Part shown: in pieces, positions 1,310 to 16,551 of the stretch
How the letters are laid out: each line of letters starts with the position of its first letter
How positions within the stretch are numbered: position 1 is the stretch's first letter
Assembly (NCBI GenBank): GCA_007128315.1
Contig: SKXQ01000023.1
Span: 12,842-76,841 of the forward strand
Direction: 5' to 3'
Source of the DNA: Spirochaetaceae bacterium
Lineage (GTDB): Bacteria; Spirochaetota; Spirochaetia; DSM-27196; SKKC01
DNA length: 64,000 bases
The notes under the pieces: generated by a model
Seen by the model: only the letters and a program-made list of their open reading frames with translations
Databases searched by the model: none
What the model was told of the DNA's origin: nothing
Made by a program: the position numbers and the translations under genes

Positions 1310-3509
1310 CTATGCTCACTCGCTCAAGCGGAGTATAACGCGGAATGAAGGTTGCGATCCGTCCGTTCTCGAAGCCGACCCGCACCATTACGTTAGTACC
1401 TTTTCGCCAGCGCTTCTGCACGACCCCGAGACCGTAATCGTCGTGATACACGCCTGCTCCCGGCGGAAGATCATCCGCTTCTTCCCAGTCTTCGGCGTCG
1501 GAGGCGGAACGCAGGCGGTCCGAAACCGTGCCGCCGGCCGCCGGGATGCCCTGTCGGCCGAAACCGGGATCACCTGATGCTGCCGGAATGCGGCGCGACG
1601 ATGTGCCCGACCCCAGGGTTTCGAGCAGCTCAGGGGGGATCTCGCCGAGAAACCGGGACGGAGCGTACTCGGTGATCCGGCCGTAGAGCCGTCGGTAGCG
1701 GCAACTGGTCAGATACAGTTCGTTCTCCGCCCGGGTCACCGCGACGTAAAACAGACGTCGTTCTTCTTCGATTTCACCGGGGCCTTCGTCAGCCCCCCGG
1801 GGAAAGAGGCCCTCTTCAAGCCCGGTGATAATGACGCGCGGGAACTCCAGCCCTTTCGTGTTGTGCATGGTAATGAGGGTAACCGCTTCACCGTCCTCGG
1901 CTGCAGTGTCGCGATTCGCGTCCAGCTCTATCATCTCGAGAAACTCAGCCAGCGCCTCGCGGCCTGATCCGTACAAGCCGGCGGCGTTCACGAGTTCATC
2001 AATGTTGGCTACCTTCCCGCTGCCCTGATACTCATCCTGGCTCGCGTGATATTCGCGCAACCCGGTTTCTTCAGCCGCCCGCTCCACGAGCACCGACAGT
2101 GAGCTGCCCTCCACCGCACCGGTAAGCGATGCAAAGACCCCGTCGAGCTCCGCCCGCGCCTTTTCGGCTTTCTTCGTGAGCCCGGGCACTGCGGCGGCAA
2201 GCGCATCAAGCAGATCACCGCCGCCTGCGAGAGCCACGTCGACTATGCGATCTACAGACTTGAGGCCGAGACTTCGGGCCGGTTTGTTGACAATGCGACG
2301 AAAACTGACCTCATCGCGGGGATTGGCGAGCAGTCGCAGAACGGCAAGGACGTCCTTGACCTCCTCACGCTCGTAAAACCGCAGCGTCCCTACAATGCGG
2401 TAGGGTATACCGCGCCGCAGGAACTCGCTTTCAAACAGGCGGCTCTGTGCATTCGTCCGGTAGAGAATTGCTGTGTTGCTGTATCGTGCATCCGCCTGCA
2501 GAATGCGCACGCAGAACTCGACTTCGGCCTCTGCGTCTGACAGGAAGGCAAGCTGTGGAAGCGGTCCGTCTTCGCGTTCGGTCCACAGGCGTTTGCCGAG
2601 CCGCCCTTCGTTGCGCGCGACGACCTCGGAAGCCAGATTCAGTATGCTGCCGGTAGAGCGATAGTTCTGTTCCAGACGCACCGTTGTCGTCCCTGGATAC
2701 TGTTCGTGAAATGTCAGAATGTTACGGACTTCTGCTCCGCGGAAGCGGTATATGCTCTGATCGTCGTCGCCGACGACGCAGAGATATGAGTCGGAACCGA
2801 CAAGCGCCCGCAGAAGCTCGAACTGCGCGACGTTCGAGTCCTGATACTCGTCGACCAGAACAACCCGGAAGCGCTGCTGTATGCGGGTCCGCACCGCTTC
2901 GTCACGCCGTAACAGCTCAAGAGGGCGAAGAATCAGGTCTCCGAAGTCGACGTTACCGATCTCGCGAAGCCGTTCGTGGTAGCGCCGGTAGACATCGCGC
3001 AGTTCCTCGTGCTGATGCGTGACCGCCGACAGGTCATTACCCGGATAGAGCGCGTAGTCCTTGGCACGACTGATCGCTCGTGACTGCGCGTTCAGGTGCG
3101 GTTTTGACTCATCGGGAAACAGGGATCGCAGCAGCTGCACCACGTCATCGTCGTCGTAGATCGTAAAGCCGGCAGGGAGTCCTGCGCGTTCGTGATTCCG
3201 GCGCAGGAACCATGCACCGAAGCTGTGAAACGTCCGGATCATGCACTCTGAGGCTCCCGGGGCGAGGGATGCGGCGCGTTCACGCATTTCCCCGGCTGCC
3301 TTGTTGGTGAAGGTTACCGCGAGAATGGACCGGGGTTGTATGCCACACTCCCGAATAAGGTATGCAATCTTGTAGGTAATGACGCGGGTCTTGCCGGAAC
3401 CGGCACCAGCGAGGATCAGGAGCGGCCCGCCCTGATGTCGGACGGCATCGAGCTGTACCGGGTTCAGGCCGTGAAGGTAATCAGGAATGGTCTCAGGCAA
3501 GGATCCCAC
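1302..3509 (-). CDS. ATP-dependent DNA helicase, UvrD/PcrA/Rep family
   Basis: LNPVQLDAV, Walker A AGAGSGKT, DEYQDSN (motif II), QNYRS, TMHNTKGLEFP, and a C-terminal Tudor-like tail (VYHDDYGLGVV). Confidence 0.93.
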   Translation of the reverse strand: MGSLPETIPDYLHGLNPVQLDAVRHQGGPLLILAGAGSGKTRVITYKIAYLIRECGIQPRSILAVTFTNKAAGEMRERAASLAPGASECMIRTFHSFGAWFLRRNHERAGLPAGFTIYDDDDVVQLLRSLFPDESKPHLNAQSRAISRAKDYALYPGNDLSAVTHQHEELRDVYRRYHERLREIGNVDFGDLILRPLELLRRDEAVRTRIQQRFRVVLVDEYQDSNVAQFELLRALVGSDSYLCVVGDDDQSIYRFRGAEVRNILTFHEQYPGTTTVRLEQNYRSTGSILNLASEVVARNEGRLGKRLWTEREDGPLPQLAFLSDAEAEVEFCVRILQADARYSNTAILYRTNAQSRLFESEFLRRGIPYRIVGTLRFYEREEVKDVLAVLRLLANPRDEVSFRRIVNKPARSLGLKSVDRIVDVALAGGGDLLDALAAAVPGLTKKAEKARAELDGVFASLTGAVEGSSLSVLVERAAEETGLREYHASQDEYQGSGKVANIDELVNAAGLYGSGREALAEFLEMIELDANRDTAAEDGEAVTLITMHNTKGLEFPRVIITGLEEGLFPRGADEGPGEIEEERRLFYVAVTRAENELYLTSCRYRRLYGRITEYAPSRFLGEIPPELLETLGSGTSSRRIPAASGDPGFGRQGIPAAGGTVSDRLRSASDAEDWEEADDLPPGAGVYHDDYGLGVVQKRWRKGTNVMVRVGFENGRIATFIPRYTPLERVSIDE

Positions 3510-3520
3510 GACAAGCGGTT

Positions 3521-4690
3521 TCAGTAGCTCGCGATAGCTGCAAGCCGCGGACTGCCGGTATCCCTGTCGGCAAGGCCAACGAGCACGCTCGAGACCTGTC
3601 CGGGACCACCGAGCGGCACCTCGGTTCCTTCAACGCGCAGGGATAGCGCTGTCGCGTTCGAAGCCGCAACGAAGACATGCTCTGAGGCGGTAAGGTCGAT
3701 CTGCTCGCCCTGCTGCAGAACATACTGACGGGTGTCACCGTCGTCGACACTGAGACGGACGAGGACCAGGCGGTTCGCATTCAGCGTAAGCGAAAACGAC
3801 GGCGCGGTAAACGCGGATCGTATGGTAACCGTTGCCCGCTCACGCCTTTCCACGCCCGCCATTCCCGCCGGAGGAAGCTCCGATCGTACCGATTCCTGCG
3901 GGACGCTCGCGATATCCGTGCCCATGGCTACCTGACGATCGATGCGAATGACCGCCTCGGGTGGTGAGGTATCGAGCATGACATTCCGTACAATGACCCG
4001 GATGTCGGGGTCACCGGAGCTGTTGAGATCCACGAGACCGGCAGCACCCTGAGGAATGGAAACGGTTCCGCCGGGGAAACGAACGCGGACCTGCTCGCCT
4101 ATGTCGTCGAGCGACAGCGGCACCTGTTCTCCGTTTATGTCTACGACAAAACGTTCACCGCGGAAGAAGGCACGCTCGAGGACATAATCGGCACCGAGAT
4201 CAACGATATCACCGGACCGCGCGGGGCCGTTCTGCGCACCCGTGGTTCCAGCGCCCGCGGTGCCCTCCTGCGCAGCCTGTTGACCGCTGCGTTCGGAACG
4301 GGCGGAGAACACCGATGCGACATCGGTGAAGAGAAACAACGCGGAGACGGCCGCCAGGACGAGCACGACGACAACCGTTACAATGACCGTCGACCGCAGC
4401 CTGCGATCGCGCCCGGTATCGAGCAACTGGTCCATGGGGGCGGGCTGTTCCTGTATCTTGATGTTGCGGTAGCGGTTCAGTATTTCGTCAGATGGAAGGC
4501 CAAGATAGTCTGCGTAGTTTCTGAGAAACCCTACCAGATACGGCTCCCCGGGGAACACCTGATAGTCGTCCTGTTCCATTGCTTCGATGTAGCGCTTAGC
4601 GATGTGGGTATCACGCGCTACCTGTTCGAAAGAGTACCCTTTGTCTTCGCGCGCAACTCGTAATCGGTCGCCAATGGATTCCATAGTCAC
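3521..4690 (-). CDS. rodZ: RodZ-like cytoskeleton-associated protein (N-terminal HTH, single TM, C-terminal beta domain)
   Basis: N-terminal IGDRLRVAREDKGYSFEQVARDTHIAKRYIEAMEQDDY HTH, one TM helix (VIVTVVVVLVLAAVSALFLF), then an extracytoplasmic C-terminal domain. This is the RodZ architecture. Confidence 0.65.
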   Translation of the reverse strand: MTMESIGDRLRVAREDKGYSFEQVARDTHIAKRYIEAMEQDDYQVFPGEPYLVGFLRNYADYLGLPSDEILNRYRNIKIQEQPAPMDQLLDTGRDRRLRSTVIVTVVVVLVLAAVSALFLFTDVASVFSARSERSGQQAAQEGTAGAGTTGAQNGPARSGDIVDLGADYVLERAFFRGERFVVDINGEQVPLSLDDIGEQVRVRFPGGTVSIPQGAAGLVDLNSSGDPDIRVIVRNVMLDTSPPEAVIRIDRQVAMGTDIASVPQESVRSELPPAGMAGVERRERATVTIRSAFTAPSFSLTLNANRLVLVRLSVDDGDTRQYVLQQGEQIDLTASEHVFVAASNATALSLRVEGTEVPLGGPGQVSSVLVGLADRDTGSPRLAAIASY

Positions 4691-4715
4691 CCGTGTTCAA
4701 GCCTGTATTATGGTT

Positions 4716-5483
4716 TCAGTTCGAGCTGTCAAACAGAAAATCTTCGAATGTACTGGAGGCTGGTGGTGACACATACTCGAACCGACTATCCGGCAAGCCC
4801 TGATTTACCCGGATATTCGTGAAGTCAAACTGCACCCTGTTCAGATCAACGGTCGTCCCGACGATTCTCCGTATGCGATAATTCGCGTCCACGCTGACAA
4901 TCAGCTGCCGGTAGCCCTCATCCGGTGTCGATGTGTCAAACCTGAGGTTCACTACCGGCGTGTCGGGTCCGACGGGCTCTATATAATTAGCCGTTGAATT
5001 GACCCCGACAAGCTCGGGAGACGCCTGAAATGCGACCGAAAAGTTACGCCGCAGCAGCGCAAGCCCCTCCGCCGTTGCAATGCCACCCGGAGCATCGGCA
5101 GTCGTACGAAGACGCTGACTGAGAGTTGTATTCAGGGACGGAACATGAACCCTCAGAAACTGACCGTCGGTGATAATGAACTGGTCCTGGGGATCGGTGA
5201 ACTCGATGTTCATGAGATTCGGTCGGCGATGATACATCGTACCAACCATGCGTTCGCGTTCGGTGGTGAATACGATATCCGCCATGTAGTCTTCAAAACC
5301 TGCGTATTCCTCGCTGACCCGCTGCAGAAACTGACTTGCGGTGCGAATCTGCTGTGATGATACGGGCGCGATTGTAAAGCCAAACAGGATGAGGACGATG
5401 AAAAATCGGTAACTCTCGCGATTATGAAGCAACATCATTCTTCGCAAGAGTTTAGTATGCGTGCAGGCTATCGTGTCAATCAC
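4716..5483 (-). CDS. LolA-like outer-membrane lipoprotein carrier / sorting protein
   Basis: Signal anchor followed by a LolA-like pattern (MVGTMYHRRPNLMNIEFTDPQDQFIITDGQFLRVHVPSLN). 4-nt overlap with the upstream gene. Confidence 0.6.
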   Translation of the reverse strand: MIDTIACTHTKLLRRMMLLHNRESYRFFIVLILFGFTIAPVSSQQIRTASQFLQRVSEEYAGFEDYMADIVFTTERERMVGTMYHRRPNLMNIEFTDPQDQFIITDGQFLRVHVPSLNTTLSQRLRTTADAPGGIATAEGLALLRRNFSVAFQASPELVGVNSTANYIEPVGPDTPVVNLRFDTSTPDEGYRQLIVSVDANYRIRRIVGTTVDLNRVQFDFTNIRVNQGLPDSRFEYVSPPASSTFEDFLFDSSN

Positions 5484-6232
5484 CGTGATCTGAGGTCCCT
5501 GATGCGATCACGCAGCTCGGCTGCACGCTCATAGTCTTCTTTCACGACGGCCTTCTCAAGCTCCACCTCGAGTGTTTCACCGGGGACCTCGTCGCTCACA
5601 ACCGTAAGCTGCCCGATGGCAGATTTCAGATAATGCACACTCCGTATACGCTCGAAATGAAAGGCTGGCGAGTCCAGATCCTCCATGGATTCGATGAAGT
5701 CTATGGCGTTCTGAATCAGGCGCGCAGCCTCATCCATACGGTGGGCCTTCATGGCAATCATGGCCAGAGCCATGGCGTGAAGACGCACAATATACGGCTT
5801 GTACTGCACGACAGGCTCACGCAGTTCGACAAGCGGACAGAACTGTTCGAGTATTTTGCAGATTCGCAGATTGTGCTCGGTATCGGCCGTCACCCGCTCG
5901 AAATCATTCCGCTGGAAGAGGAGCAGATAGCGATAATAGTAGAGAACAGCCTCTTCCTGCAGCATTTCGCACTCTGAACGCGAAAGTTCATACCCCACGT
6001 CGGAACCATGCAGCTGCCGGTACTCGGCGATCTGTGACTCGAGATGCGCAAGGACGCTGCTGAACCCGAAAGGCAGCGCCCCGTCCGGCCGGTTCGTCAG
6101 CTCATACTGCTCTACCCCGAGTGGCAGTCTGACCTGCAGAACAGGGCGTCCGTCTTCCGCCGACACAATCCGCGTGGTATTCTCAGCATCATACGGCCAT
6201 TCCTCAAAAACAGATGTCAGGTCATGGTTCAT
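5480..6232 (-). CDS. UVR-domain-containing protein (UvrB/UvrC motif at C-terminus)
   Basis: The C-terminal LEKAVVKEDYERAAELRDRIRDLRS is a classic UVR motif. The rest is helical with unknown function. Confidence 0.6.
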   Translation of the reverse strand: MNHDLTSVFEEWPYDAENTTRIVSAEDGRPVLQVRLPLGVEQYELTNRPDGALPFGFSSVLAHLESQIAEYRQLHGSDVGYELSRSECEMLQEEAVLYYYRYLLLFQRNDFERVTADTEHNLRICKILEQFCPLVELREPVVQYKPYIVRLHAMALAMIAMKAHRMDEAARLIQNAIDFIESMEDLDSPAFHFERIRSVHYLKSAIGQLTVVSDEVPGETLEVELEKAVVKEDYERAAELRDRIRDLRSR

Positions 6233-6375
6233 CGGCTATCTCACATTGGCTCGGGCCAGAATGGATATATCGTAGATTATAGCGCAGCCCGCGCAAAAGC
6301 ACTAAAAAGACCGCACAAAACAGACCTTTCCCTGCTTGCAGGCAACGTGATCAGAGGCTAGGATGTGAAACAGAT

Positions 6376-7065
6376 ATGAAAACACATGTTTTGTCGCTCG
6401 GTGGAAGCATCGTAGCCCCCGACCAGGTCGATGTAGCCTTTCTGCGGCTGTTCAAGGAACGCATCGGTGGTTTCCTTGACCGCCATCCCGAGGACCGTCT
6501 CATCCTCGTGATTGGCGGTGGCGGTCCTGCCCGCCACTACCAGAACGCGCTGCGGGCGCTTGCCGGCGACGCCCCGCCGGAGCAGCAGGACCATGTCGGC
6601 ATAGCGGCAACACGACTGAATGCCGAGCTCATCCGCGGTATTTTCCTGGCCTACGGTGACAATCAGCTGGTTACCGATCCTACTGCCGAGCTCAGTTTCG
6701 AGGGGCGGGTACTGGTAGGAGCGGGATGGAAACCCGGGTTTTCGACGGATTTTGACGCCGTATGCCTCGCCGAGCGCTATGGAGCTGATACCGTCGTGAA
6801 TCTTTCGAACATCAAACAGGTGTATACCGCAGATCCTTCGAAAGACGCATCTGCGAAACCGCTTGTGCATATTTCCTGGGCCGATTTCCGGAAAATGGTC
6901 GGAGACACCTGGAATCCGGGGGCGAATGTACCCTTTGATCCCATCGCCGCACGACGGGCCATGGAGCTCGGATTCAAGGTGATTGTCGCATCCGGACGAA
7001 ACCTCGACACCGTCGAGGCCATCCTCGAGGGAAAGCCAGACTTCCTTGGTACGACGATAGGCTGA
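6376..7065 (+). CDS. pyrH: Amino-acid-kinase-fold protein, archaeal-type UMP kinase-like
   Basis: LSLGGSIV, VIGGGGPARHYQ, GWKPGFSTDFDA, VYTADPSKDASAK. Length (229 aa) and motif order match archaeal-type uridylate kinases. Confidence 0.7.
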   Translation: MKTHVLSLGGSIVAPDQVDVAFLRLFKERIGGFLDRHPEDRLILVIGGGGPARHYQNALRALAGDAPPEQQDHVGIAATRLNAELIRGIFLAYGDNQLVTDPTAELSFEGRVLVGAGWKPGFSTDFDAVCLAERYGADTVVNLSNIKQVYTADPSKDASAKPLVHISWADFRKMVGDTWNPGANVPFDPIAARRAMELGFKVIVASGRNLDTVEAILEGKPDFLGTTIG

Positions 7066-7071
7066 TAACGC

Positions 7072-8613
7072 TCACAAACCCGGAAAAAAGCGGACCGCCC
7101 GGTTCCGAAGCATCTCTGTCTCGGCTCCGGTGAGCCCTCCTGCGCGGAGACTGTACCGCCCGAGATCCACGAGGGCCTGGCCGAAGGCGACAGGCGAAAT
7201 GATCTGGTCAAGAAGTGCAATAGCCTGCTCATACAACCCGAGCCGTGAAAGGAGCTCAACGAGCTCGCCGGTTACCTCATCGATCTGATAATCGGCCTGC
7301 AGCCCGGCGACCCGCGCCTGTTCGGCGATCGCAAAAGCCTCGGTTGTCTCTTCAAGGTCCAGCGACTCCAGCGCGATCGCTACAAGGAGTCGGGCTCTCT
7401 GCGTCGCATCCGGCAGGGCGTCTGCCGCCTCTCGGGCAAGGTCAACCCGCCCCGCACGCACAAACAGCCGCCCGAGCCTCCGCAGCACATCCGAACGGGT
7501 GAACTCATCATCGACATCCCTGACGACAAGCAATGCCACCTCGGCGTTCTGCTCCGCAGTCGCATCCTGACCGGCAGCGAGAAGACGTTCGGCCACATCG
7601 GTAATGACGTCGGCGAGCTGTGCATCTGTGCCCTCAAATGCAATCAGATTGATGGCCAGATCAAAGACGCGTTCAGCCTCATCGGGCTCGTTGCGCTCAA
7701 GAAAGCGGCTGCCGAGCTCGGCAAATCCACGGGCGTAGATACCGGGAAACTCGATAGTTTCAATGACCTGCTCGGCCGCCGCCAGACGCGACATACCGGA
7801 AAGGTCCTCAGCAACCCGCAGGAGAACCGCCGCGTCTGCCGGTGATCGGGTCAGCACGCGCACGTTGTCGATCTCTCTCAGCGCGCGGGCGACGTAGGTC
7901 GCGGCGTCCGACTCGTTTCCGGCGACGTGAAAGCGACGCGCCACCGCCGTGTAGCCTTCGGCACGCAGCCACGGATTGCGTATCCCGCCCACCGCAGTAA
8001 TTGCCTGCTGAACGAGCGTGTTCACCTGCTGACCCAGCCCGCTCGCCTGGTACTGCCGGGCGATGTCCGTGAGCAGCGAAGCGCGCGACGGAAGATCCTG
8101 CAGAATATACACCTGATCGACCGCGCGCACGAGAACGTCGAACAGCTCTTCGCCTGCGATGAACGAGGCGTTGATAACCTCCTGCAATACGACGGTGCGT
8201 ATCGATTCGGACGCACTCTCGCTTTCCCGCAGGGCACGATCGAGCAAAGTTCTCGCCCGTTCGATACGCCCGAGATCGATGAAGGGAAAGGCAAGCTGCA
8301 CGAACACCTCAGCCCGGGCGACGCCAACCTCCTCAGCCTCGGCGAGTCTGACCGCGCGCTCGAGCACACTCGTCGCAGGGAGAATCAGCCCGACGTCGAT
8401 GTACGCCTCGGCGATGCGGGTATAAAGGAGCGCCTGGGTAAACACGTCAGGAACGATCGAGGCGATCTGCAGACTGACCGCAAGAGCGCTGTCGGAGTCT
8501 CCCTCGACCGTTACCGGGGCGGGTTGTGTCTGCCGCACGGTCGCACACGAGGTGAAAAGCACGACAAGAGAAGCCAGAACTGGGATGATACGCGGTCGTG
8601 CCGATCTGTGCAT
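7072..8613 (-). CDS. Hypothetical lipoprotein with TPR-like / helical repeats
   Basis: Signal peptide ending LFTSC (lipobox-like), followed by a long Ala/Leu/Arg-rich repetitive helical protein. Confidence 0.5.
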   Translation of the reverse strand: MHRSARPRIIPVLASLVVLFTSCATVRQTQPAPVTVEGDSDSALAVSLQIASIVPDVFTQALLYTRIAEAYIDVGLILPATSVLERAVRLAEAEEVGVARAEVFVQLAFPFIDLGRIERARTLLDRALRESESASESIRTVVLQEVINASFIAGEELFDVLVRAVDQVYILQDLPSRASLLTDIARQYQASGLGQQVNTLVQQAITAVGGIRNPWLRAEGYTAVARRFHVAGNESDAATYVARALREIDNVRVLTRSPADAAVLLRVAEDLSGMSRLAAAEQVIETIEFPGIYARGFAELGSRFLERNEPDEAERVFDLAINLIAFEGTDAQLADVITDVAERLLAAGQDATAEQNAEVALLVVRDVDDEFTRSDVLRRLGRLFVRAGRVDLAREAADALPDATQRARLLVAIALESLDLEETTEAFAIAEQARVAGLQADYQIDEVTGELVELLSRLGLYEQAIALLDQIISPVAFGQALVDLGRYSLRAGGLTGAETEMLRNRAVRFFPGL

Positions 8614-9823: not shown

Positions 9824-12136
9824 ATGGATATAGATTATTATTTGGTCTTAGTGAGTGCAACAGACGGACTCAGCATCCTTATACTCGACTCAAACCCAAC
9901 GGCGCGCGCTGCAACTGCCCGGCGACTGTCAGCACGAGGACTCACGGTTTACGGTGCCGACACTGTTGCCGACTCGATTCAGCAGATTGAGGAACACCTC
10001 GGGATTGTTGCCGTGCTCCTGAACGCGCAGGAGCATGATATAGATCAGTTCAGAGCGTCGCTGTACAGGGTCCTGGGTGTCGACCGCATAGCAGCCTGTC
10101 TACCCGTTACCGTTGACTCCACGCACCCGGAGGACGGACACGTCCTGTTGACGGGCTCCCGAGACGATCCTGATCCCTTATATGAGGCTGTTCGAACCGA
10201 GGTCAGCCGGCACTTTGAGCAGATCGATCTGCGCGAACACGTTCTCAGAAACCAGGCGCTCACGCGGGCAGTACCGGATGCGATGTTCGTGTTCGATGCG
10301 CAGGGAATCTACCAGGAAATTCACGCGCCGGATCAGAGCGCACTCGTGCGATCGCCTCGGGAACTCATTGGAAAATCCATCGCTGACGTTATGGGAACGG
10401 AAGTCCACGAGCGACATCTCAGTCAGGTCGCTGAGGCACGCGCAGACCGCGATGGTCACCGGCCACGACCGTTTCGGTACGAAGTGCGGATCGGCGACAA
10501 GAACCGGTACTTCGAGTCCATTCTGACTCTGATTGATGATGAACGCAGTCTGGTTGTTGTCCGCGATGTCACGTCGGAACAGCGCTATCATTCGCAGAAA
10601 CACGAACAGGCACAATACCAGGCTACGATTCACGCGATTTCGCGACGGTTTATGCAGGCAGTTCCGGATACTGCCGACACCGATCTGCTCTTCGCAATGC
10701 GAAAACTCGGTCAGCATCTCGGTGTCGACTGGGTCACGATCGGGTTGACTACCGGAGCAAGCGATGTTCTGGAAGTCACACACCACTGGCGAAAAACCGG
10801 TCCGTCCTTTCCTCCGGTGCTCGAGGATTCCGGCCCGCTGGAGATTCCCATGAACGTCCCCGCGATGGTGCAGGCGATGGAGCACCGGGGTTATCTCGAC
10901 ATACACGACACAGCCGCCGCACCGGAAGGCATAACGGCCTTCGCCCGGGACATGGAACGTTACGGAGTGCGGTCACTGCTCGCCTTTTCGCTGGTCGAGC
11001 GACAGGAAATCGTCGGCGCACTGGTCGTCTCGTGCGTAAAGGCGCGACCGCGCATGCGCTTGCGGGACATTACCCTCGTTCAGGTTGTTGCGAGACTCAT
11101 CAACGACGCCATTATCGCTCAGCGCAGCTATGTGCGAATCGAGCAGACATCAGAAGGATTCGAGGCGCTGTTCGGTCTGAGTCTCGAAGGGCTGCTCATT
11201 CACCGCGGCGGACAGATTATTCACGTAAACGGGGCATTCGCGTGCATGTTCGGGTACGAGCAAAGCGAGTTAACCGGATGCGATATGCACCCGCTCATCA
11301 GACCCGAGTATCACCGCCTCCTTCTCCCTGGAAGCGAAACTAAAAGGCAGAATCGACAGACCGTCGTCGGAATACACCGAAATGGCGAGGACATCTGGCT
11401 CGAGATCGAGTGCAGGCCGGTGCCGCTTGAAGACGGTCAGGCAGAGTTGGTCGCCTTTCATGATGTTTCTCACCATATAAAACGGGAGGCACAGATTGAA
11501 CGGCTTCTGCACGAGAAAGAACGTCTCATCAAGGACATTCACCATCGCCTGAAGAACCAGATGCTCTCCATCGAAAGCCTTCTCTCCCTGAAATCCCAGG
11601 AAGTCGGGACCGCTTCATCCGCCTCGGCCCTGAACGAAACGCGTAATCACGTCCACGGATTGGCGCTCCTCTACGACCGCCTGTACCGCTCAACGGAGAG
11701 CAGCGATCTTCTCGCCGCTTCCGGGTACCTTCCGACGCTCATACAGGACATAATCCAGCTCTCTGCTCATCAGGCAGGACTGGAAGCGAACATCGATATC
11801 CCGGATACCCGGCTTACGGTCCGCAGGTTGTCGCGCCTCGGCATGATACTGAACGAGCTGATCAGCAACACCGTGAAGCACGCGTACCCCGATCCCGGCG
11901 ACGGTCAGGCTCGATCAGGCGTCATAACCATTGCGCTTGCCGAGACGGCACCTGGTGAACTCACGCTGAGCTACGCCGACGACGGTAAGGGCATCCCGGA
12001 TGCGGTCGCGAATGGCCACTCGGCAGGACTCGGCATGGACCTCGTCCGCGCCTTCTCCGAAGAAATCGGGGGGACGTTGACGATATCCGGATCCTCCGCG
12101 GGGACCGCTGTCAGGCTTGTGTTTCCGTCCGGCTAG
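9824..12136 (+). CDS. Multi-domain sensor histidine kinase (REC-like N-domain, PAS, GAF, PAS, HisKA_2-type DHp, HATPase)
   Basis: LSILILDSNP receiver-like start. H-box IHHRLKNQMLSIESLL (HisKA_2/HWE style). N-box LNELISNTVKHAY. G-box DDGKGIP...GLGMDLV. Confidence 0.85.
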   Translation: MDIDYYLVLVSATDGLSILILDSNPTARAATARRLSARGLTVYGADTVADSIQQIEEHLGIVAVLLNAQEHDIDQFRASLYRVLGVDRIAACLPVTVDSTHPEDGHVLLTGSRDDPDPLYEAVRTEVSRHFEQIDLREHVLRNQALTRAVPDAMFVFDAQGIYQEIHAPDQSALVRSPRELIGKSIADVMGTEVHERHLSQVAEARADRDGHRPRPFRYEVRIGDKNRYFESILTLIDDERSLVVVRDVTSEQRYHSQKHEQAQYQATIHAISRRFMQAVPDTADTDLLFAMRKLGQHLGVDWVTIGLTTGASDVLEVTHHWRKTGPSFPPVLEDSGPLEIPMNVPAMVQAMEHRGYLDIHDTAAAPEGITAFARDMERYGVRSLLAFSLVERQEIVGALVVSCVKARPRMRLRDITLVQVVARLINDAIIAQRSYVRIEQTSEGFEALFGLSLEGLLIHRGGQIIHVNGAFACMFGYEQSELTGCDMHPLIRPEYHRLLLPGSETKRQNRQTVVGIHRNGEDIWLEIECRPVPLEDGQAELVAFHDVSHHIKREAQIERLLHEKERLIKDIHHRLKNQMLSIESLLSLKSQEVGTASSASALNETRNHVHGLALLYDRLYRSTESSDLLAASGYLPTLIQDIIQLSAHQAGLEANIDIPDTRLTVRRLSRLGMILNELISNTVKHAYPDPGDGQARSGVITIALAETAPGELTLSYADDGKGIPDAVANGHSAGLGMDLVRAFSEEIGGTLTISGSSAGTAVRLVFPSG

Positions 12137-12585
12137 TTGCGGAGTGGTCTGACTTCGACCTCGGTTTTGACACGCGCACCCGACTCAAAATGGAGCTCCA
12201 GCTCAAAACTCTCCCCGGCCTCCAGGGCGTGGTTCAGGCCTATAAGCATCACGTGTATCCCCATGGGCTCGAGGACCACGGTTTCACCGGCCGGAACCGC
12301 GAGTCCGTCGTGCAACGGCCTCATGACCATGACATCTCCGTTGCGTTCATGCACATGTATTTCTATGACCTCAGCCGCGGCCGAGTACCCCCCGATCAGA
12401 ACATCGTCGGTATCAGAATTGCTGGTGAGTCTCAGGTACGCTGCTGCGTTGCGGGGTATACCCGCTGTCTCTCGAGCCCATGCATTCTGCACCCGGAAGG
12501 GTTGCTGTTCACCACGACCACCGGCGGAGGCAGTCACGGCAAGGAGCATAACGACACTGCATGCGGTCAGAAACCGGCGTCTCAT
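12133..12585 (-). CDS. Periplasmic copper chaperone PCu(A)C (DUF461 family)
   Basis: Signal peptide, then IHVHERNGDVMVM...MGIHVM, an H-x10-M...H-x-M copper(I) motif. The ATGA overlap with the upstream fusion gene suggests coupling. Confidence 0.85.
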   Translation of the reverse strand: MRRRFLTACSVVMLLAVTASAGGRGEQQPFRVQNAWARETAGIPRNAAAYLRLTSNSDTDDVLIGGYSAAAEVIEIHVHERNGDVMVMRPLHDGLAVPAGETVVLEPMGIHVMLIGLNHALEAGESFELELHFESGARVKTEVEVRPLRN

Positions 12586-14381
12586 AGTCCGACCTGATTC
12601 GCCGCAACTGATCGGACGGTACCGTGGCGCATGTGATTTCGTATCGCCCGGGCAACGTTCTCCGGACCGAAGTCATGTATGAACCAGTTGATAAAGTTAC
12701 CGTCGGTATCCATAAGATACATGGCCTTCGAGTGGTCCATGCTGTATCCTGCGGCACTCCCGGTGTCCACCTGTCTGGCGAAGGCGCCGAAGGATCGAAC
12801 TGCATTCGTGACCTGCTCGCGTGTGCCGCCCAGACCGACCATGCGTGAGTCGAAGGCTTGTACGTAGGAGGCGATCGCTTCGGGGCTGTCACGATCCGGG
12901 TCAACTGAGATAAAGATCGGCTGCACCAGGTCGGCATCGTCTCCAAGGGCGTCGAGAACGTCGAGCATGGTGTTGATGGTGATCGGACAGTAGTCGGTAC
13001 AGTTCGTGTACCCGAAGCCGACAAGGCGATACATGCCGTCAAAATCCGACTCCGTCACCAGCCGCCCGGGGCCTTCCTGCAGCTCGAAGGCACCATCAAT
13101 CACATCCTCGTAGATTACCGCTGTGGCCATACCACCAGCGGAGTGGTTCAGCTCGTGACAGTGAAACAGCCACACACCTGGATTATCCGCTATGAACTCG
13201 ATGTCGTAGGTGTCGCCCGGCATGACCGTCTGTACGTTTTTAACCAGTTCAAGCCCGGCCGGCACAGGGTTTCCGTCGGTCGCGACGATGCGAAACTGAT
13301 GTCCGTGCAGATGCATGGGATGGAAGGTCGCGCTTCCCGCATTGATCATGCGTATACGCACCCGGTCGCCGTAGGTCACTCGTATGGGCTCGGTATCGGG
13401 ATAGACCCGGCCGCTGATCGGAAACAGTCCGCGATTGATGCGCTCGGTCAGCACGATCGTGTGCTCCACATCGGGCCGGTCGTAATCGCGCGGCTCAATG
13501 ACAATGGGGCCTGCAAGGCCCATATCCATCTGCCTGGCCTCGCTGAGATGATCGAGCCCGTGGGTATGATAAAAGCGGGTCCCCGCGGGATACGCATCAA
13601 ACTCATAAACAAAGGTCTCGCCGGGGCGCGTCGCCTCCTGCGTATATCCCGGAACCCCGTCAGACCAGTTCATGAGGTCTATCCCATGCCAGTGAACGGT
13701 TGTCGCCTCGGGCAGATAGTTCGTGAACTCTACCCTTACGCGGTCACCTTCTGTTACGCGTATTTCGGGTCCCGGAAGCTGTCCGTTGTAGCCCCAGCTT
13801 TCCACCGGTTCTCCGTTGCCGTAGTCCCACATGACCACCTCGGCGGTCAGGCGGAAGACTTTTACGCCGTCTTCATCGACCTCGTAGGGCAGCACGCTGA
13901 TCGCGTCCTCCGCAGAACGGACGGGTATGTCCGATTCCGGCGCTTCGGCGGCACCGGTATCAGCAACAGACTCCCCTTCGCCGGTCACAAAGAGGGTTCC
14001 CCGCTGACTGAAATGCCCCGATCCGCAGTAGACCGAGCAGTAAAACTCGAAATCGCCGCTCCGGGAGGCGACGAACTCGACTGTCGTCGTCTGGCTCGCG
14101 GGAAGTCGCTGATCCACGTTGAACTCGCGAATCGCGAAGCCGTGGTCGTATGTATCTTCGTTCGTGATATGGAGTCGAACCAGTGTACCGGCTTCAACAG
14201 TGATTTCACCGGGATCCCAGGTCCATGTGTTCTGTATCACGCGCATATCGATGTCAATTTCCTGACTCGCCGCCACAGGCATGGATGCGCTGACGACCGA
14301 TACCGTCCCGAATCCTATAAATACGAGCCCAAGAACAACGTATGCGCCCAGAAGGGCGCGAAGTACCACGTGCTTTTTCAA
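12582..14381 (-). CDS. Tri-domain copper protein: CuA-type cupredoxin + two-domain multicopper oxidase + Sco1/SenC thiol-disulfide copper chaperone
   Basis: Cupredoxin: DHGF...YCSVYCGSGHFSQ. MCO: HWHG, YHTHG, HPMHLHGH, HCHELNHSAGGM. Sco: NCTDYCP plus MDHS. The ORF track starts at TTG 14456; I prefer TTG 14381, 6 nt after GGAGG, which gives an MKKHVVLRALLG signal anchor. Confidence 0.85.
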   Translation of the reverse strand: MKKHVVLRALLGAYVVLGLVFIGFGTVSVVSASMPVAASQEIDIDMRVIQNTWTWDPGEITVEAGTLVRLHITNEDTYDHGFAIREFNVDQRLPASQTTTVEFVASRSGDFEFYCSVYCGSGHFSQRGTLFVTGEGESVADTGAAEAPESDIPVRSAEDAISVLPYEVDEDGVKVFRLTAEVVMWDYGNGEPVESWGYNGQLPGPEIRVTEGDRVRVEFTNYLPEATTVHWHGIDLMNWSDGVPGYTQEATRPGETFVYEFDAYPAGTRFYHTHGLDHLSEARQMDMGLAGPIVIEPRDYDRPDVEHTIVLTERINRGLFPISGRVYPDTEPIRVTYGDRVRIRMINAGSATFHPMHLHGHQFRIVATDGNPVPAGLELVKNVQTVMPGDTYDIEFIADNPGVWLFHCHELNHSAGGMATAVIYEDVIDGAFELQEGPGRLVTESDFDGMYRLVGFGYTNCTDYCPITINTMLDVLDALGDDADLVQPIFISVDPDRDSPEAIASYVQAFDSRMVGLGGTREQVTNAVRSFGAFARQVDTGSAAGYSMDHSKAMYLMDTDGNFINWFIHDFGPENVARAIRNHMRHGTVRSVAANQVGL

Positions 14382-14462
14382 GCCTGACCTCCAGAACCGA
14401 TAGTAATATTTTTTATCGATATGATAAAAAATACCAGCGCCGGGGTTTTTATACAAGCTTTT

Positions 14463-15239
14463 TTAGCGGTAAAACGATACCGTCGGGTTCCGGTGGAGCG
14501 CCACGAAGAAACGCGCCACGGCAAGGGTGCTGTGGCCAACGATCACAGGAAGCAGCGAGCCGGAACTCACGACCAGCAGTCCGGCGACTGTCGACAGCAC
14601 GAGCCCACCGAAGGCCGGCACGCATCCATCCGGAAGTCGCGACAGTCCATACAGAACCGCCGAAACGGCGATTGCAAGATCTGCACCTGCAGGCAGAAGC
14701 AGCGCAAAGAGGACACCACGAAGAATCCACTCCACTGCCGCTGTGTGCACGACCAGGCCGAGCAGGTTCGCGATGAGTGCCCACCATGTCCACTCGAGGA
14801 CGGGGGGGTCGGTTTCAATATCCGGATCGGGTGTCGCCCTCATGCGGCGAGCGATATAGTACGCGAGCACGAATGCAACCACGACGGCGGTCCAGATCCA
14901 CGCCTGCGTATCAAGGATATCCAGAGAAGCAAGGTCCGGAGCGACGCTCATATGGAACCGCTGCGGCAGTCGCTGTGGCAGCATCCATCGGACAAGCGCG
15001 TACACGGCGCCCGGTCCTGCAAGATACATGAGGACGGCGAAGAGTCTGCGGACGCTCACACCGAGTATCTCGGCAACAGGACTTACGAGGCCGGGATCGC
15101 GCGGCGCCGTCAGCGTGAGGGCTTGCGACTCGAAGAACTGCTGATATCCGATCGACGTGCGCAGGAGTGCGTAACACATCGCACCGACGGTGAAACTCCC
15201 AAGCGTACTGACGACAGCAACAGTGTTCAGCATGTACAT
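14463..15239 (-). CDS. Polytopic membrane protein, divergent CPBP (CAAX protease / bacteriocin-processing)-like
   Basis: About 7 TM helices. AAVEWILRGVLF resembles the EExxxR motif, and VGHSTLA resembles the HxxxN motif, but the FxxxH position reads YGLSR. This may be a non-catalytic member. Confidence 0.45.
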   Translation of the reverse strand: MYMLNTVAVVSTLGSFTVGAMCYALLRTSIGYQQFFESQALTLTAPRDPGLVSPVAEILGVSVRRLFAVLMYLAGPGAVYALVRWMLPQRLPQRFHMSVAPDLASLDILDTQAWIWTAVVVAFVLAYYIARRMRATPDPDIETDPPVLEWTWWALIANLLGLVVHTAAVEWILRGVLFALLLPAGADLAIAVSAVLYGLSRLPDGCVPAFGGLVLSTVAGLLVVSSGSLLPVIVGHSTLAVARFFVALHRNPTVSFYR

Positions 15240-15284
15240 CAGTCTGCCGCATGACCGGGTTCAGAGCAAGTCATCGGATGCCTA

Positions 15285-15310
15285 TTGACCGTATTATTAC
15301 CAAGTAATAC
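15285..15310. promoter_or_regulatory. TTGACC -35-like box followed by inverted repeat gtatta-N8-taatac in the divergent region between the copper module and the COG0523 gene; candidate Zur/Fur-family operator
   Basis: Read directly at 15285-15290 (ttgacc) and 15291-15310 (gtattattaccaagtaatac). Lies 12-31 nt upstream of the COG0523 ATG. Confidence 0.35.
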
Positions 15311-15321
15311 CATCCGGCTCC

Positions 15322-16551
15322 ATGGCTGTACAAAACGATACCCGTCTTCCCGTCACCGTCCTGTCCGGTTATCTGGGGTCGGGCAAGACAACGCTGCTGA
15401 ATCATGTGCTGAGTAACCGTGAGGGCCTGAAGGTAGCCGTCATTGTAAACGACATGTCCGAAGTCAATATTGACGCCGCTCTTGTACTGAAGGGAGACGC
15501 CGCGCTCAGCAGAACCGAGGAAGAACTCGTGGAGATGTCCAACGGATGTATCTGCTGCACCCTCCGGGATGATCTTCTGAAGGAAGTGACCAAGCTCGCT
15601 CGCGCCGGACGCTTCGATTACCTGCTCATCGAAAGCTCGGGGGTCTCCGAACCGCTGCCGGTGGCACAGACCTTTACCTTCGACGACGAGGAAGGCAAGA
15701 GCCTCAAGGATCTGACCCGCCTTGACACCATGGTCAGTGTCGTTGATGTATCGCGCTTCTTCGACGAGTTCGGCAGCGAAGATTTTCTTGTCGACCGCGG
15801 TCAGGGCATGGCTGAAGACGATGAGCGCACCATCGCCCACCTTCTGACCGATCAGATCGAGTTCGCCGACGTAATCCTGCTCAACAAGATTGACGCGGTC
15901 GATGAGCAGGAGCTTCGCAGGGTCGAGTCGGTCGTTCGAAGACTGAATTCTACCGCGGAGCTCGTACACACCGAATTCGCACGGGTCGATCTCGCGCGCA
16001 TTCTCAACACGGGAAAATTCGACATGGACGCTGCCGAAAGCTCCCAGGCCTGGCAGGACGAACTTGAGGCGGTGCACGTACCGGAGACAGAAGAGTACGG
16101 TATATCTTCGTTTGTGTTTCGAACGGAGCGCCCGTTTCATCCACAGCGACTCGCCGAATACTGGAATGGTGAGCAGGAGGGAGTCATCCGGGCAAAAGGA
16201 TTTTTCTGGATTGCCAGTCGCCCGGACGTCGCCTGGTACCTCTCGCAGGCCGGAAGTGCGAAACGGGCGGAGCCGGGGGGATTCTGGTGGGCGGCGATGC
16301 CGAAGAAGTACTGGCCGGACACGGATGCCGAGCGTCTGGAAGTCCATAAACTGGTCAGGGGCAGCGAGTTCGGGGACAGAAAGCAGGAACTCGTGTTCAT
16401 TGGACGCAGCATGGATGAGGCGGGTATTCGATCGGGACTGTCGGCGTGTCTGCTGACACAGTCCGAACTCGAAGAGGGACCGGAAGCATGGGCAGCCTTC
16501 GCGGACCCGCTCGGATCTCAGCTTCCCGAAGACATGACGGTGCCGGAATAA
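15322..16551 (+). CDS. COG0523-family G3E GTPase (CobW/ZigA/YeiR-like metal chaperone)
   Basis: P-loop GYLGSGKTTLLN, CxCC metal motif GCICCTLRDDL, ESSGVSEP, NKID, and a C-terminal CobW_C-like domain. Confidence 0.88.
   Translation: MAVQNDTRLPVTVLSGYLGSGKTTLLNHVLSNREGLKVAVIVNDMSEVNIDAALVLKGDAALSRTEEELVEMSNGCICCTLRDDLLKEVTKLARAGRFDYLLIESSGVSEPLPVAQTFTFDDEEGKSLKDLTRLDTMVSVVDVSRFFDEFGSEDFLVDRGQGMAEDDERTIAHLLTDQIEFADVILLNKIDAVDEQELRRVESVVRRLNSTAELVHTEFARVDLARILNTGKFDMDAAESSQAWQDELEAVHVPETEEYGISSFVFRTERPFHPQRLAEYWNGEQEGVIRAKGFFWIASRPDVAWYLSQAGSAKRAEPGGFWWAAMPKKYWPDTDAERLEVHKLVRGSEFGDRKQELVFIGRSMDEAGIRSGLSACLLTQSELEEGPEAWAAFADPLGSQLPEDMTVPE

Follow-up and report, generated by a model that had tools for sequence, protein, structure and literature searches.

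A single open reading frame (ORF) on the minus strand of contig SKXQ01000023.1 of a Spirochaetaceae bacterium, within the 64,000-nucleotide stretch analysed here (the window, to which all coordinates refer), encodes a signal anchor, a CuA-type cupredoxin domain, a two-domain multicopper oxidase (2dMCO) core and a Sco1/SenC copper chaperone domain in one polypeptide. This composition had been proposed from the sequence alone (the original prediction), and Pfam and NCBIfam profiles support every one of its modules. The copper ligands and the fusion are conserved and the identities of the domains are established; copper occupancy, binuclearity, the electron path, the client of the chaperone and the physiology are what we infer from them. 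There is, in our estimation, an even chance that the protein works as a trimer that reduces O2 in the periplasm, takes in electrons at a tethered CuA-like domain and has its CuA assembly factors encoded in cis.

All modules belong to known families. The elements for which no match was found in the searched literature are a CuA-type domain that would feed a multicopper oxidase (MCO), a CuA site in which Met is replaced by Gln, and a Sco domain fused to its presumed client. Full-text searches returned no paper on the CuA-MCO-Sco architecture, which the original prediction had likewise regarded as uncharacterised, and none on natural Gln-containing CuA sites. No record exists for the exact sequence of the window protein in the collection consulted, and the proteins of the family carry either the database name 'hypothetical protein' or partial labels.

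Gene structure and conservation of the fusion

The program-made ORF list contains a minus-strand ORF at 12582..14456, which the original prediction took as the gene. Its frame and stop codon stand, while its start is likely to lie further downstream. A TTG at 14381, codon 26 of the listed ORF, has GGAGG 6 nt before it, and the homologues are 579-625 amino acids (aa) long, most of them 589-600. The gene is therefore probably 12582..14381, encoding 599 aa, with the first 25 codons of the listed ORF untranslated. Two residue numberings are used below, that of the listed ORF (624 aa) and that from the TTG start (599 aa). The features of the fusion, with residues in the 599-aa numbering, and of the gene that follows it are:

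12582..14381 (-): fusion gene, 599 aa, comprising signal anchor, CuA-like cupredoxin, 2dMCO and Sco domain (ORF, GGAGG, homologue lengths)
14283..14375 (-): N-terminal transmembrane helix, residues 3-33 (helix in the AlphaFold2 (AF2) model)
13983..14264 (-): CuA-type cupredoxin, residues 40-133 (Cupredoxin_1, NosZ CuA region, ba3 profile match)
14133-14147 (-): DHGFA motif
14004-14039 (-): CuA loop CSVYCGSGHFSQ
13923..13982 (-): acidic flexible linker from the CuA-like domain to the MCO core, residues 134-153
13482..13922 (-): MCO domain 1, about residues 154-300, with HWHG and HTHG (Cu-oxidase_3)
13683-13694 (-): HWHG
13557-13568 (-): HTHG
13101..13481 (-): MCO domain 2, about residues 301-427, with HPMHLHGH and HCHELNHSAGGM (Cu-oxidase_2)
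13299-13322 (-): HPMHLHGH
13128-13163 (-): motif of the type 1 (T1) copper block, HCHELNHSAGGM
12612..13094 (-): ScoI/SCO1-type thioredoxin-fold domain, about residues 430-590 (SCO1-SenC)
12987-13001 (-): CTDYC
12729-12737 (-): DHS
12133..12585 (-): PCuAC (PcuC-type) periplasmic copper chaperone gene (PF04314)

The motifs quoted in the original prediction are all present where it had placed them, and its domain coordinates agree with these to within a few codons. The AF2 monomer model of the fusion protein has a mean predicted local distance difference test score (pLDDT) of 91.8 and a predicted template modelling score of 0.76, and its N-terminal helix (residues 3-33) is read from the model as a signal anchor or Sec signal. 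Neither the window protein nor any of 22 homologues contains a twin-arginine motif, from which it follows that the protein would be exported unfolded and its copper inserted outside the cytoplasm.

A search of 5.8 billion proteins recovered the three-module architecture in about 22 clusters (54-98 % identity; 579-625 aa), several of which are named as proteins of Spirochaetaceae metagenome-assembled genomes (MAGs). The CuA-loop pattern was scanned for in a single genome of each species, and a purpose-built hidden Markov model (HMM) for each module was then applied; this identified the three-module gene in twelve species-representative genomes, all of them spirochaete MAGs (DLM2, PLM2, CSSed, CSBr and T3Sed names). 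Two further metagenome contigs (L001 and L002) carry it as well, giving fourteen loci. One of the genomes, the MAG Spirochaetaceae DLM2.Bin42 (L006), represents the same species as the window, with 99 % identity over the CuA domain. In these clusters and loci the domain order occurs as the same single ORF and not as three separate genes. That an assembly, frameshift or gene-calling error joined separate genes is accordingly a negligible prospect: nothing but the spurious 25-codon N-terminal extension of the listed ORF speaks for it, and the same continuous ORF recurs at 54-98 % identity in independent assemblies (DLM/GEM/PLM and CSSed/CSBr/T3Sed prefixes, and others). The isolate names of the MAGs resemble those in published soda-lake metagenome work, such as a study of Canadian soda-lake mats (PMC6748926), which suggests a soda-lake mat or sediment habitat.

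The CuA-like domain and the oxidase core

The N-terminal cupredoxin is matched by Cupredoxin_1 (Pfam; residues 65-142 in the 624-aa numbering; 53 bits), by TIGR04246 of NCBIfam (NosZ CuA region, positions 483-576; 65 bits) and also by the CoxB model. A CuA profile built from 27 such domains and run against the sequences of the PDB aligned over its full length with the CuA domain of Thermus ba3 oxidase (E 9e-21 to 3e-18), with the ligand His, Cys, Cys and His in register, and matched the CuA domains of NosZ at about 1e-15 (6e-15). The CuA-like ligand positions are H80, C115, C119 and H123, with Q126 at the site of the axial Met (599-aa numbering); the corresponding residues H105, C140, C144, H148 and Q151 (624-aa numbering) are invariant in an alignment of 23 sequences. 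The Cys-x3-Cys-x3-His loop described in the original prediction is thus borne out, being both invariant and aligned to that of Thermus CuA, but the site departs from a canonical CuA centre at the axial position. The domain shares full-length homology, and the His plus Cys-x3-Cys-x3-His ligand set, with subunit II of ba3 oxidase (Thermus 2cua) and with the C-terminal domain of NosZ, but differs from both in its invariant Gln and in its occurrence outside a haem-copper oxidase or N2O reductase.

The Gln appears to go with the fusion. It occupies the axial site in all of the fifty closest fused proteins and, in the genome set, in 20/20 of the MCO-fused domains; Met occupies it in 63/66 of the stand-alone relatives. 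The stand-alone relatives that keep Met belong to DPANN, the candidate phyla radiation (CPR), Blastocatellia and other groups, and Met is likewise retained by a handful of fused entries in the protein database (P0051 and P0053-56). As judged by these comparisons, the domain is a member of the CuA family with a fusion-specific axial substitution. An axial Gln in cupredoxins is expected to lower the reduction potential, which would favour downhill electron transfer to the T1 copper. The linker that joins the domain to the MCO core is variable in the alignment, and its residues 141-148 have pLDDT values below 50 in the AF2 model.

Stand-alone CuA-type cupredoxins are widespread (282 tblastn matches). 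Those of loci L022-L085 are membrane-anchored proteins of 130-210 aa with the canonical Met, and are found in DPANN archaea, CPR bacteria, Blastocatellia and Omnitrophota. By inspection of the sequences only, their neighbours include a DsbA-like thioredoxin (13 loci), a P-type ATPase (8 loci) and an Fe/Mn superoxide dismutase (8 loci).

The MCO core comprises a Cu-oxidase_3 domain (residues 214-323; E 3e-40) and a Cu-oxidase_2 domain (residues 348-450; E 3e-33; both in the 624-aa numbering). These are the only two MCO-type cupredoxin domains found by Pfam, with which the AF2 model and its Foldseek search agree. The four ligand blocks recognised in the original prediction are intact: every His, Cys and Met in them is invariant in the 23-sequence alignment, the full set of eight His residues for a trinuclear cluster is present, and the motifs occur in 120/120 of the relatives checked. 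Among the best Foldseek matches to the model are the 2dMCOs 3g5w, 2zwn, 3gdc, 7rab and SLAC (template modelling scores 0.72-0.82; 25-32 % identity). For the three-domain NirK of Hyphomicrobium and the Nitrosopumilus MCO with a C-terminal cupredoxin, the structural alignment extends over the extra cupredoxin as well.

Comparison with 3g5w locates the T1 site. The HCH of domain 1 in that structure is HTH here and its HDH is HCH here, which places the T1 copper in domain 2, in the layout designated type B. Domain 1, with Thr at the position of the T1 Cys, has no T1 site. Thus the closest proteins by sequence, the BCO of N. europaea (3g5w) and mgLAC (2zwn), are of type C, but the ligand layout is that of type B, and the T1 ligands lie in domain 2 as they do in the type B enzyme SLAC. 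Unlike SLAC, which is exported via the twin-arginine translocation (Tat) pathway, the window protein has no Tat motif, is predicted to be Sec-exported and membrane-anchored, and carries the additional CuA-like and Sco domains. Domain 1 retains a vestigial T1-like motif (HTHG...H; 13545-13568) with an invariant downstream His, which suggests that both MCO domains of an ancestral protein held T1 sites.

Two other identities for the core were considered and rejected. NirK is discounted by a TIGR02376 score of 68.7 bits against a cut-off of 296 and by the complete trinuclear ligand set. A CueO- or CopA-type enzyme is discounted by the presence of only two domains, by scores of 148 against 479 (TIGR01480) and 122 against 525 (CueO), and by the lack of a Met-rich stretch.

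The arrangement proposed here, a trimeric two-domain copper enzyme with a cupredoxin on a flexible linker as its electron relay, is that of Nmar_1354 (MCO4; 9cck) and of the NirK of Hyphomicrobium denitrificans (2dv6, 6tfd). In those proteins, however, the extra domain holds a mononuclear T1 blue copper, whereas here it has a CuA-type Cys2His2 loop; it is N-terminal here, following a membrane anchor, and the chaperone domain is absent from them. A relay through a tethered domain is plausible because the cupredoxin of Nmar_1354, on a linker of 15 aa, sits at a T1-T1 distance of 13.5 A (PMC11761707). The same protein oxidises NH2OH (PMC11761707), as other characterised 2dMCOs oxidise substrates of their own, and some relatives of the window protein bear the JGI label 'manganese oxidase'. 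It could hence be supposed that the T1 site directly oxidises Fe(II), Mn(II), hydroxylamine, sulfide-derived species or phenolics, with the CuA-like domain as an auxiliary relay or a regulatory site; the complete core could indeed act alone, as in bare relatives of about 350 aa that consist of the MCO core and nothing else. This explanation is considered rather unlikely. A small-molecule oxidase would not need a CuA-type domain and a linked ferric-reductase-domain (FRD) cytochrome b (described below), both of which are dedicated modules for protein electron transfer, and the Gln specialisation of the fused domain argues for a tuned functional role.

The chaperone modules and a candidate electron donor

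The C-terminal module is a Sco domain, as had been predicted. It matches SCO1-SenC (PF02630) over residues 455-588 (624-aa numbering; E 1e-42; 145.5 bits against a cut-off of 22.8), its best matches are Bradyrhizobium ScoI (4wbr; E 1e-33) and human SCO1 (E 1e-30), and the two Cys residues of its CxxxC motif and the downstream His (C461, C465 and H550 in the 599-aa numbering; C486, C490 and H575 in the 624-aa numbering) are invariant in the 23-sequence alignment. It begins 3-5 residues past the end of the MCO core, with high pLDDT across the junction, and has no anchor of its own.

Overlooked in the original prediction was the gene that adjoins the fusion (12133-12585), which encodes a PCuAC protein (PF04314; 112 bits against a cut-off of 29.4). 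Its H...M...HxM ligand residues are conserved in thirteen orthologues. The start of this gene overlaps the stop codon of the fusion by 4 nt and the two genes probably form one operon. PCuAC lies directly downstream in 12/12 of the three-module loci in which the contig continues and is the sole universal neighbour. ScoI and PcuC together build the CuA site on CoxB, both in vitro and in vivo (PMC6669012). With the ScoI and PcuC proteins of Bradyrhizobium, Thermus and mitochondria the present pair shares the CxxxC and His residues and the H/M ligands of PCuAC, with the difference that the candidate CuA client is in the same chain, Sco being a C-terminal fusion to this presumed client, and that no cytochrome oxidase is encoded nearby. 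PCuAC here also lacks the His/Met-rich C-terminal Cu(II) tail of PcuC.

The history of the two chaperones bears on their role. In a crude neighbour-joining tree the two-module spirochaete proteins, which lack the Sco domain, nest inside the three-module clade. In loci L088 and L089, which carry a close relative of family protein P0012, the CuA-MCO gene ends at 452 aa, and remnants of both chaperones follow its stop codon (L088, 6317-6467; L089, 1761-1911): 21 aa of Sco (86 % identical) and 36 aa of PCuAC (81 %). This is best read as a joint, recent deletion of both chaperone modules, with the oxidase and FRD genes left intact. Joint loss while the oxidase persists shows Sco and PCuAC behaving as one accessory, dispensable unit, as would be expected of assembly factors rather than of a catalytic domain. 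The constant adjacency of PCuAC and the joint decay of the pair lend indirect support to the idea, raised in the original prediction, of a self-maturing oxidase.

The same evidence bears on the alternative that Sco is a permanent redox module, a thiol-disulfide or Cu-thiolate donor, in which case the protein would be a thiol:O2 oxidoreductase. Sco proteins have a thioredoxin/peroxiredoxin-like fold, the 3-5-residue junction with the MCO is nearly rigid, and two relatives of about 745 aa from Azambacteria and related CPR bacteria (P0082 and P0088) fuse the same 2dMCO core to a DsbD/CcdA-type thiol-electron transporter domain (PF02683). Yet Sco and PCuAC come and go as a pair, with the oxidase and the FRD protein persisting, and the domain matches ScoI, a proven CuA chaperone, at E 1e-33 with its Cys2His site intact; a redox role for Sco thus appears quite improbable.

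A further gene is linked to the fusion in most relatives. Immediately upstream and on the opposite strand, 10/13 three-module loci (L001, L009-L015, L017 and L018), as well as L016, L020 and L088, encode a divergent 210-240-aa membrane protein with six helices and four invariant His residues at spacings of i/i+14 and i/i+13. Such spacing is the bis-haem signature of FRD proteins, for example NOX2. Many members carry a precomputed PF01794 match or have been labelled 'YedYZ heme-binding membrane subunit' or similarly by JGI, and the AF2 model (pLDDT 89) is most similar to the transmembrane domains of SpNOX and NOX5, Dcytb and cytochrome b561, with STEAP1 also among its matches. Pfam gave nothing beyond a weak DUF4079 match on two of these neighbours and a profile search of the family against PDB sequences gave no matches; the assignment to the FRD family is made because of the PF01794 matches of relatives, the His spacing and the Foldseek result. 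The neighbour is thus likely a di-haem cytochrome b and a plausible candidate electron donor to the CuA-MCO.

A parallel is found in a Nitrospiraceae MAG (L047), where a NOX-like protein of 448 aa with FRD, FAD and NAD domains (538-1884) is followed directly by a stand-alone CuA cupredoxin (1850-2413), possibly forming a minimal transmembrane system for electron export from NAD(P)H to a cupredoxin. Together with the FRD linkage of the fusion, this pair suggests that the CuA-type domain is supplied with electrons across the membrane. In the relatives, the arrangement resembles MsrQ/YedZ-MsrP and SpNOX in that a four-His FRD protein with six transmembrane helices would feed a periplasmic or external acceptor; the acceptor here would be the CuA-MCO, and not a molybdoenzyme or O2 directly. 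The original prediction had named O2, Cu(I), Fe(II) and thiols as possible substrates; of these, the NOX/MsrQ-type context of the relatives favours protein-fed reduction of O2 over the oxidation of Cu(I), Fe(II) or thiols. The MAG PLM2.Bin13 encodes, at a distance of 5 kb from its CuA-MCO-Sco gene, a DOMON-domain protein and next to it a second FRD-like paralogue (L086, 3341-4647); the two may constitute a second extracytoplasmic haem electron-transfer pair.

Proposed mechanism, genomic setting and significance

The proposed enzyme would be a Sec-inserted, membrane-anchored oxidase facing the periplasm. Its core would be a homotrimeric 2dMCO with T1 copper in domain 2 and, as in other 2dMCOs, a trinuclear cluster between subunits, at which O2 would be reduced to water. 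Electrons would enter the CuA-like domain, made mobile by its linker of about 20 residues, and pass from there to the T1 copper and on to the trinuclear cluster, so that the domain would serve as a built-in relay, much as the dangling cupredoxins do in three-domain NirK and in archaeal MCO4. After export by Sec, copper would be loaded into the CuA-like centre by the fused Sco domain and PCuAC, which may also hold its cysteines in the reduced state. In most relatives, electrons would cross the membrane by way of the divergently encoded di-haem cytochrome b of the FRD/NOX/MsrQ type. Electron transfer from the inside to a periplasmic O2 reductase would conserve no energy by itself, which favours a role in O2 scavenging or as a terminal oxidase that does not pump protons, in spirochaetes that presumably live in mats and sediments. 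The chain in its most specific form, independent of haem-copper oxidases and running from cytoplasmic or quinol electrons through a NOX/MsrQ-type cytochrome b and a Gln-ligated binuclear CuA site to the trimeric 2dMCO and O2, is put forward tentatively, as a possibility that is itself on the doubtful side.

Several observations weigh against the O2 reductase reading. With regard to electron entry, the CuA profile also matches nitrosocyanin (E 1e-12), the Pfam COX2 model is sub-threshold on the CuA-like domain (19.5 against 22 bits), and Gln stands in for the axial Met, two residues after the last His, in each of the 23 three-module proteins; the copper site may conceivably be mononuclear or atypical in some other way. 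According to a 2026 paper (PMC13151041), type B 2dMCOs have their T1 site inside a tunnel in the middle of the trimer, a position to which a protein domain may have no ready access. With regard to assembly, neither Sco nor PCuAC occurs within the fetched flanks of the complete two-module loci (0/4: L003/L008, one contig fetched twice, L016, L019 and L021, with the incomplete L020 left out), Kaiserbacteria being among the two-module relatives. The CuA-like site may assemble without Sco and PCuAC, or the pair may serve another client. With regard to the donor, an HMM search of all ORFs of the window retrieved no FRD-like protein even at E <10, and the FRD gene is not adjacent to the fusion in the two closest clades (L002 and L007); in the MAG DLM2.Bin48, which also lacks the adjacency, an FRD gene is located on another contig.

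The original prediction had remarked that the window contains no haem-copper oxidase or N2O reductase gene, and a Pfam sweep of 20 further large ORFs was indeed empty for cox, cyd and nos genes; the ORFs swept encode housekeeping, signalling and transport functions. Neither copA, cusF, csoR nor other cop or cus genes were found in the window. The features that flank the oxidase region are:

9824-12136 (+): 770-aa response-regulator/PAS/HWE-type histidine kinase, its end overlapping the PCuAC gene by 4 nt
14382..14462 (-): AT-rich intergenic stretch upstream of the fusion gene (read from the sequence)
14463-15239 (-): CPBP/Rce1-like intramembrane protease homologue (PF02517, 30 bits)
15322-16551 (+): CobW-family GTPase, ZigA-like (579.7 bits against a ZigA cut-off of 600)

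The AT-rich stretch is a possible promoter of the fusion gene, on weak evidence: a consensus scan of 11900-15400 for promoters and terminators performed no better than on shuffled sequences and gave nothing upstream of the fusion gene. The CPBP/Rce1-like gene lies directly upstream on the same strand and is found at the locus only in the same species (L006). The ZigA-like GTPase gene is transcribed divergently from the oxidase region, and L006 and L002 are the only loci that share its synteny. The histidine kinase gene converges on the PCuAC gene and is not at the same position in L002. With synteny limited to the same species or the nearest relative, all three were rejected as parts of the system.

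The copper-binding partners and the ZigA-like neighbour bring in another explanation, copper homeostasis, under which the protein would be a CueO-like cuprous oxidase and the Cys/His-rich cupredoxin, Sco and PCuAC would take up periplasmic Cu(I) and pass it to the oxidase for detoxification, or would buffer scarce copper. Sco and PCuAC do bind copper, CopA-type TIGR01480 and CueO are the top NCBIfam names for the core, though far below their cut-offs, and a ZigA-like metallochaperone GTPase is the divergent neighbour in both the window and L002. Furthermore, a more distant subgroup (L004, the P0066 contig, 1541-7323) is encoded in a copper-resistance-like operon, the other members of which are DUF411, an ArsR regulator that contains YHS, and a P-type ATPase. 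That subgroup, however, lacks the CxxxC CuA-type domain, and the subgroups of this MCO family probably differ in role. The ZigA synteny is confined to the closest relatives, the neighbours across the family are PCuAC and the transmembrane cytochrome b rather than efflux genes, the window has no copA, cusF or csoR, and the protein itself has neither a Met-rich insert (no stretch of 30 aa holds more than 3 Met) nor a Tat signal. A role in copper homeostasis is, on balance, unlikely.

To our knowledge, nearly all CuA centres serve to let electrons into haem-copper oxidases and N2O reductase, and multicopper oxidases are normally fed directly by their substrates. A CuA-type site wired to an MCO would thus join two classical copper systems and, if the proposed mechanism is true, the CuA-MCO would be a new natural host of CuA, in addition to cytochrome oxidase, nitric oxide reductase (NOR) and N2O reductase. 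Spectroscopic and redox-tuning studies would gain a naturally occurring CuA variant with Gln in place of Met. The Sco domain would be the first known Sco chaperone covalently fused to its client and, with the adjoining PCuAC, would make up a compact one-operon model of CuA assembly, which the conserved architecture renders experimentally tractable by heterologous expression. For nominally anaerobic spirochaetes the protein would represent a minimal terminal oxidase, with a two-module form serving CPR bacteria. It may thus explain how fermentative spirochaetes, and possibly, by way of the shorter form, CPR bacteria, handle oxygen without conventional oxidases.

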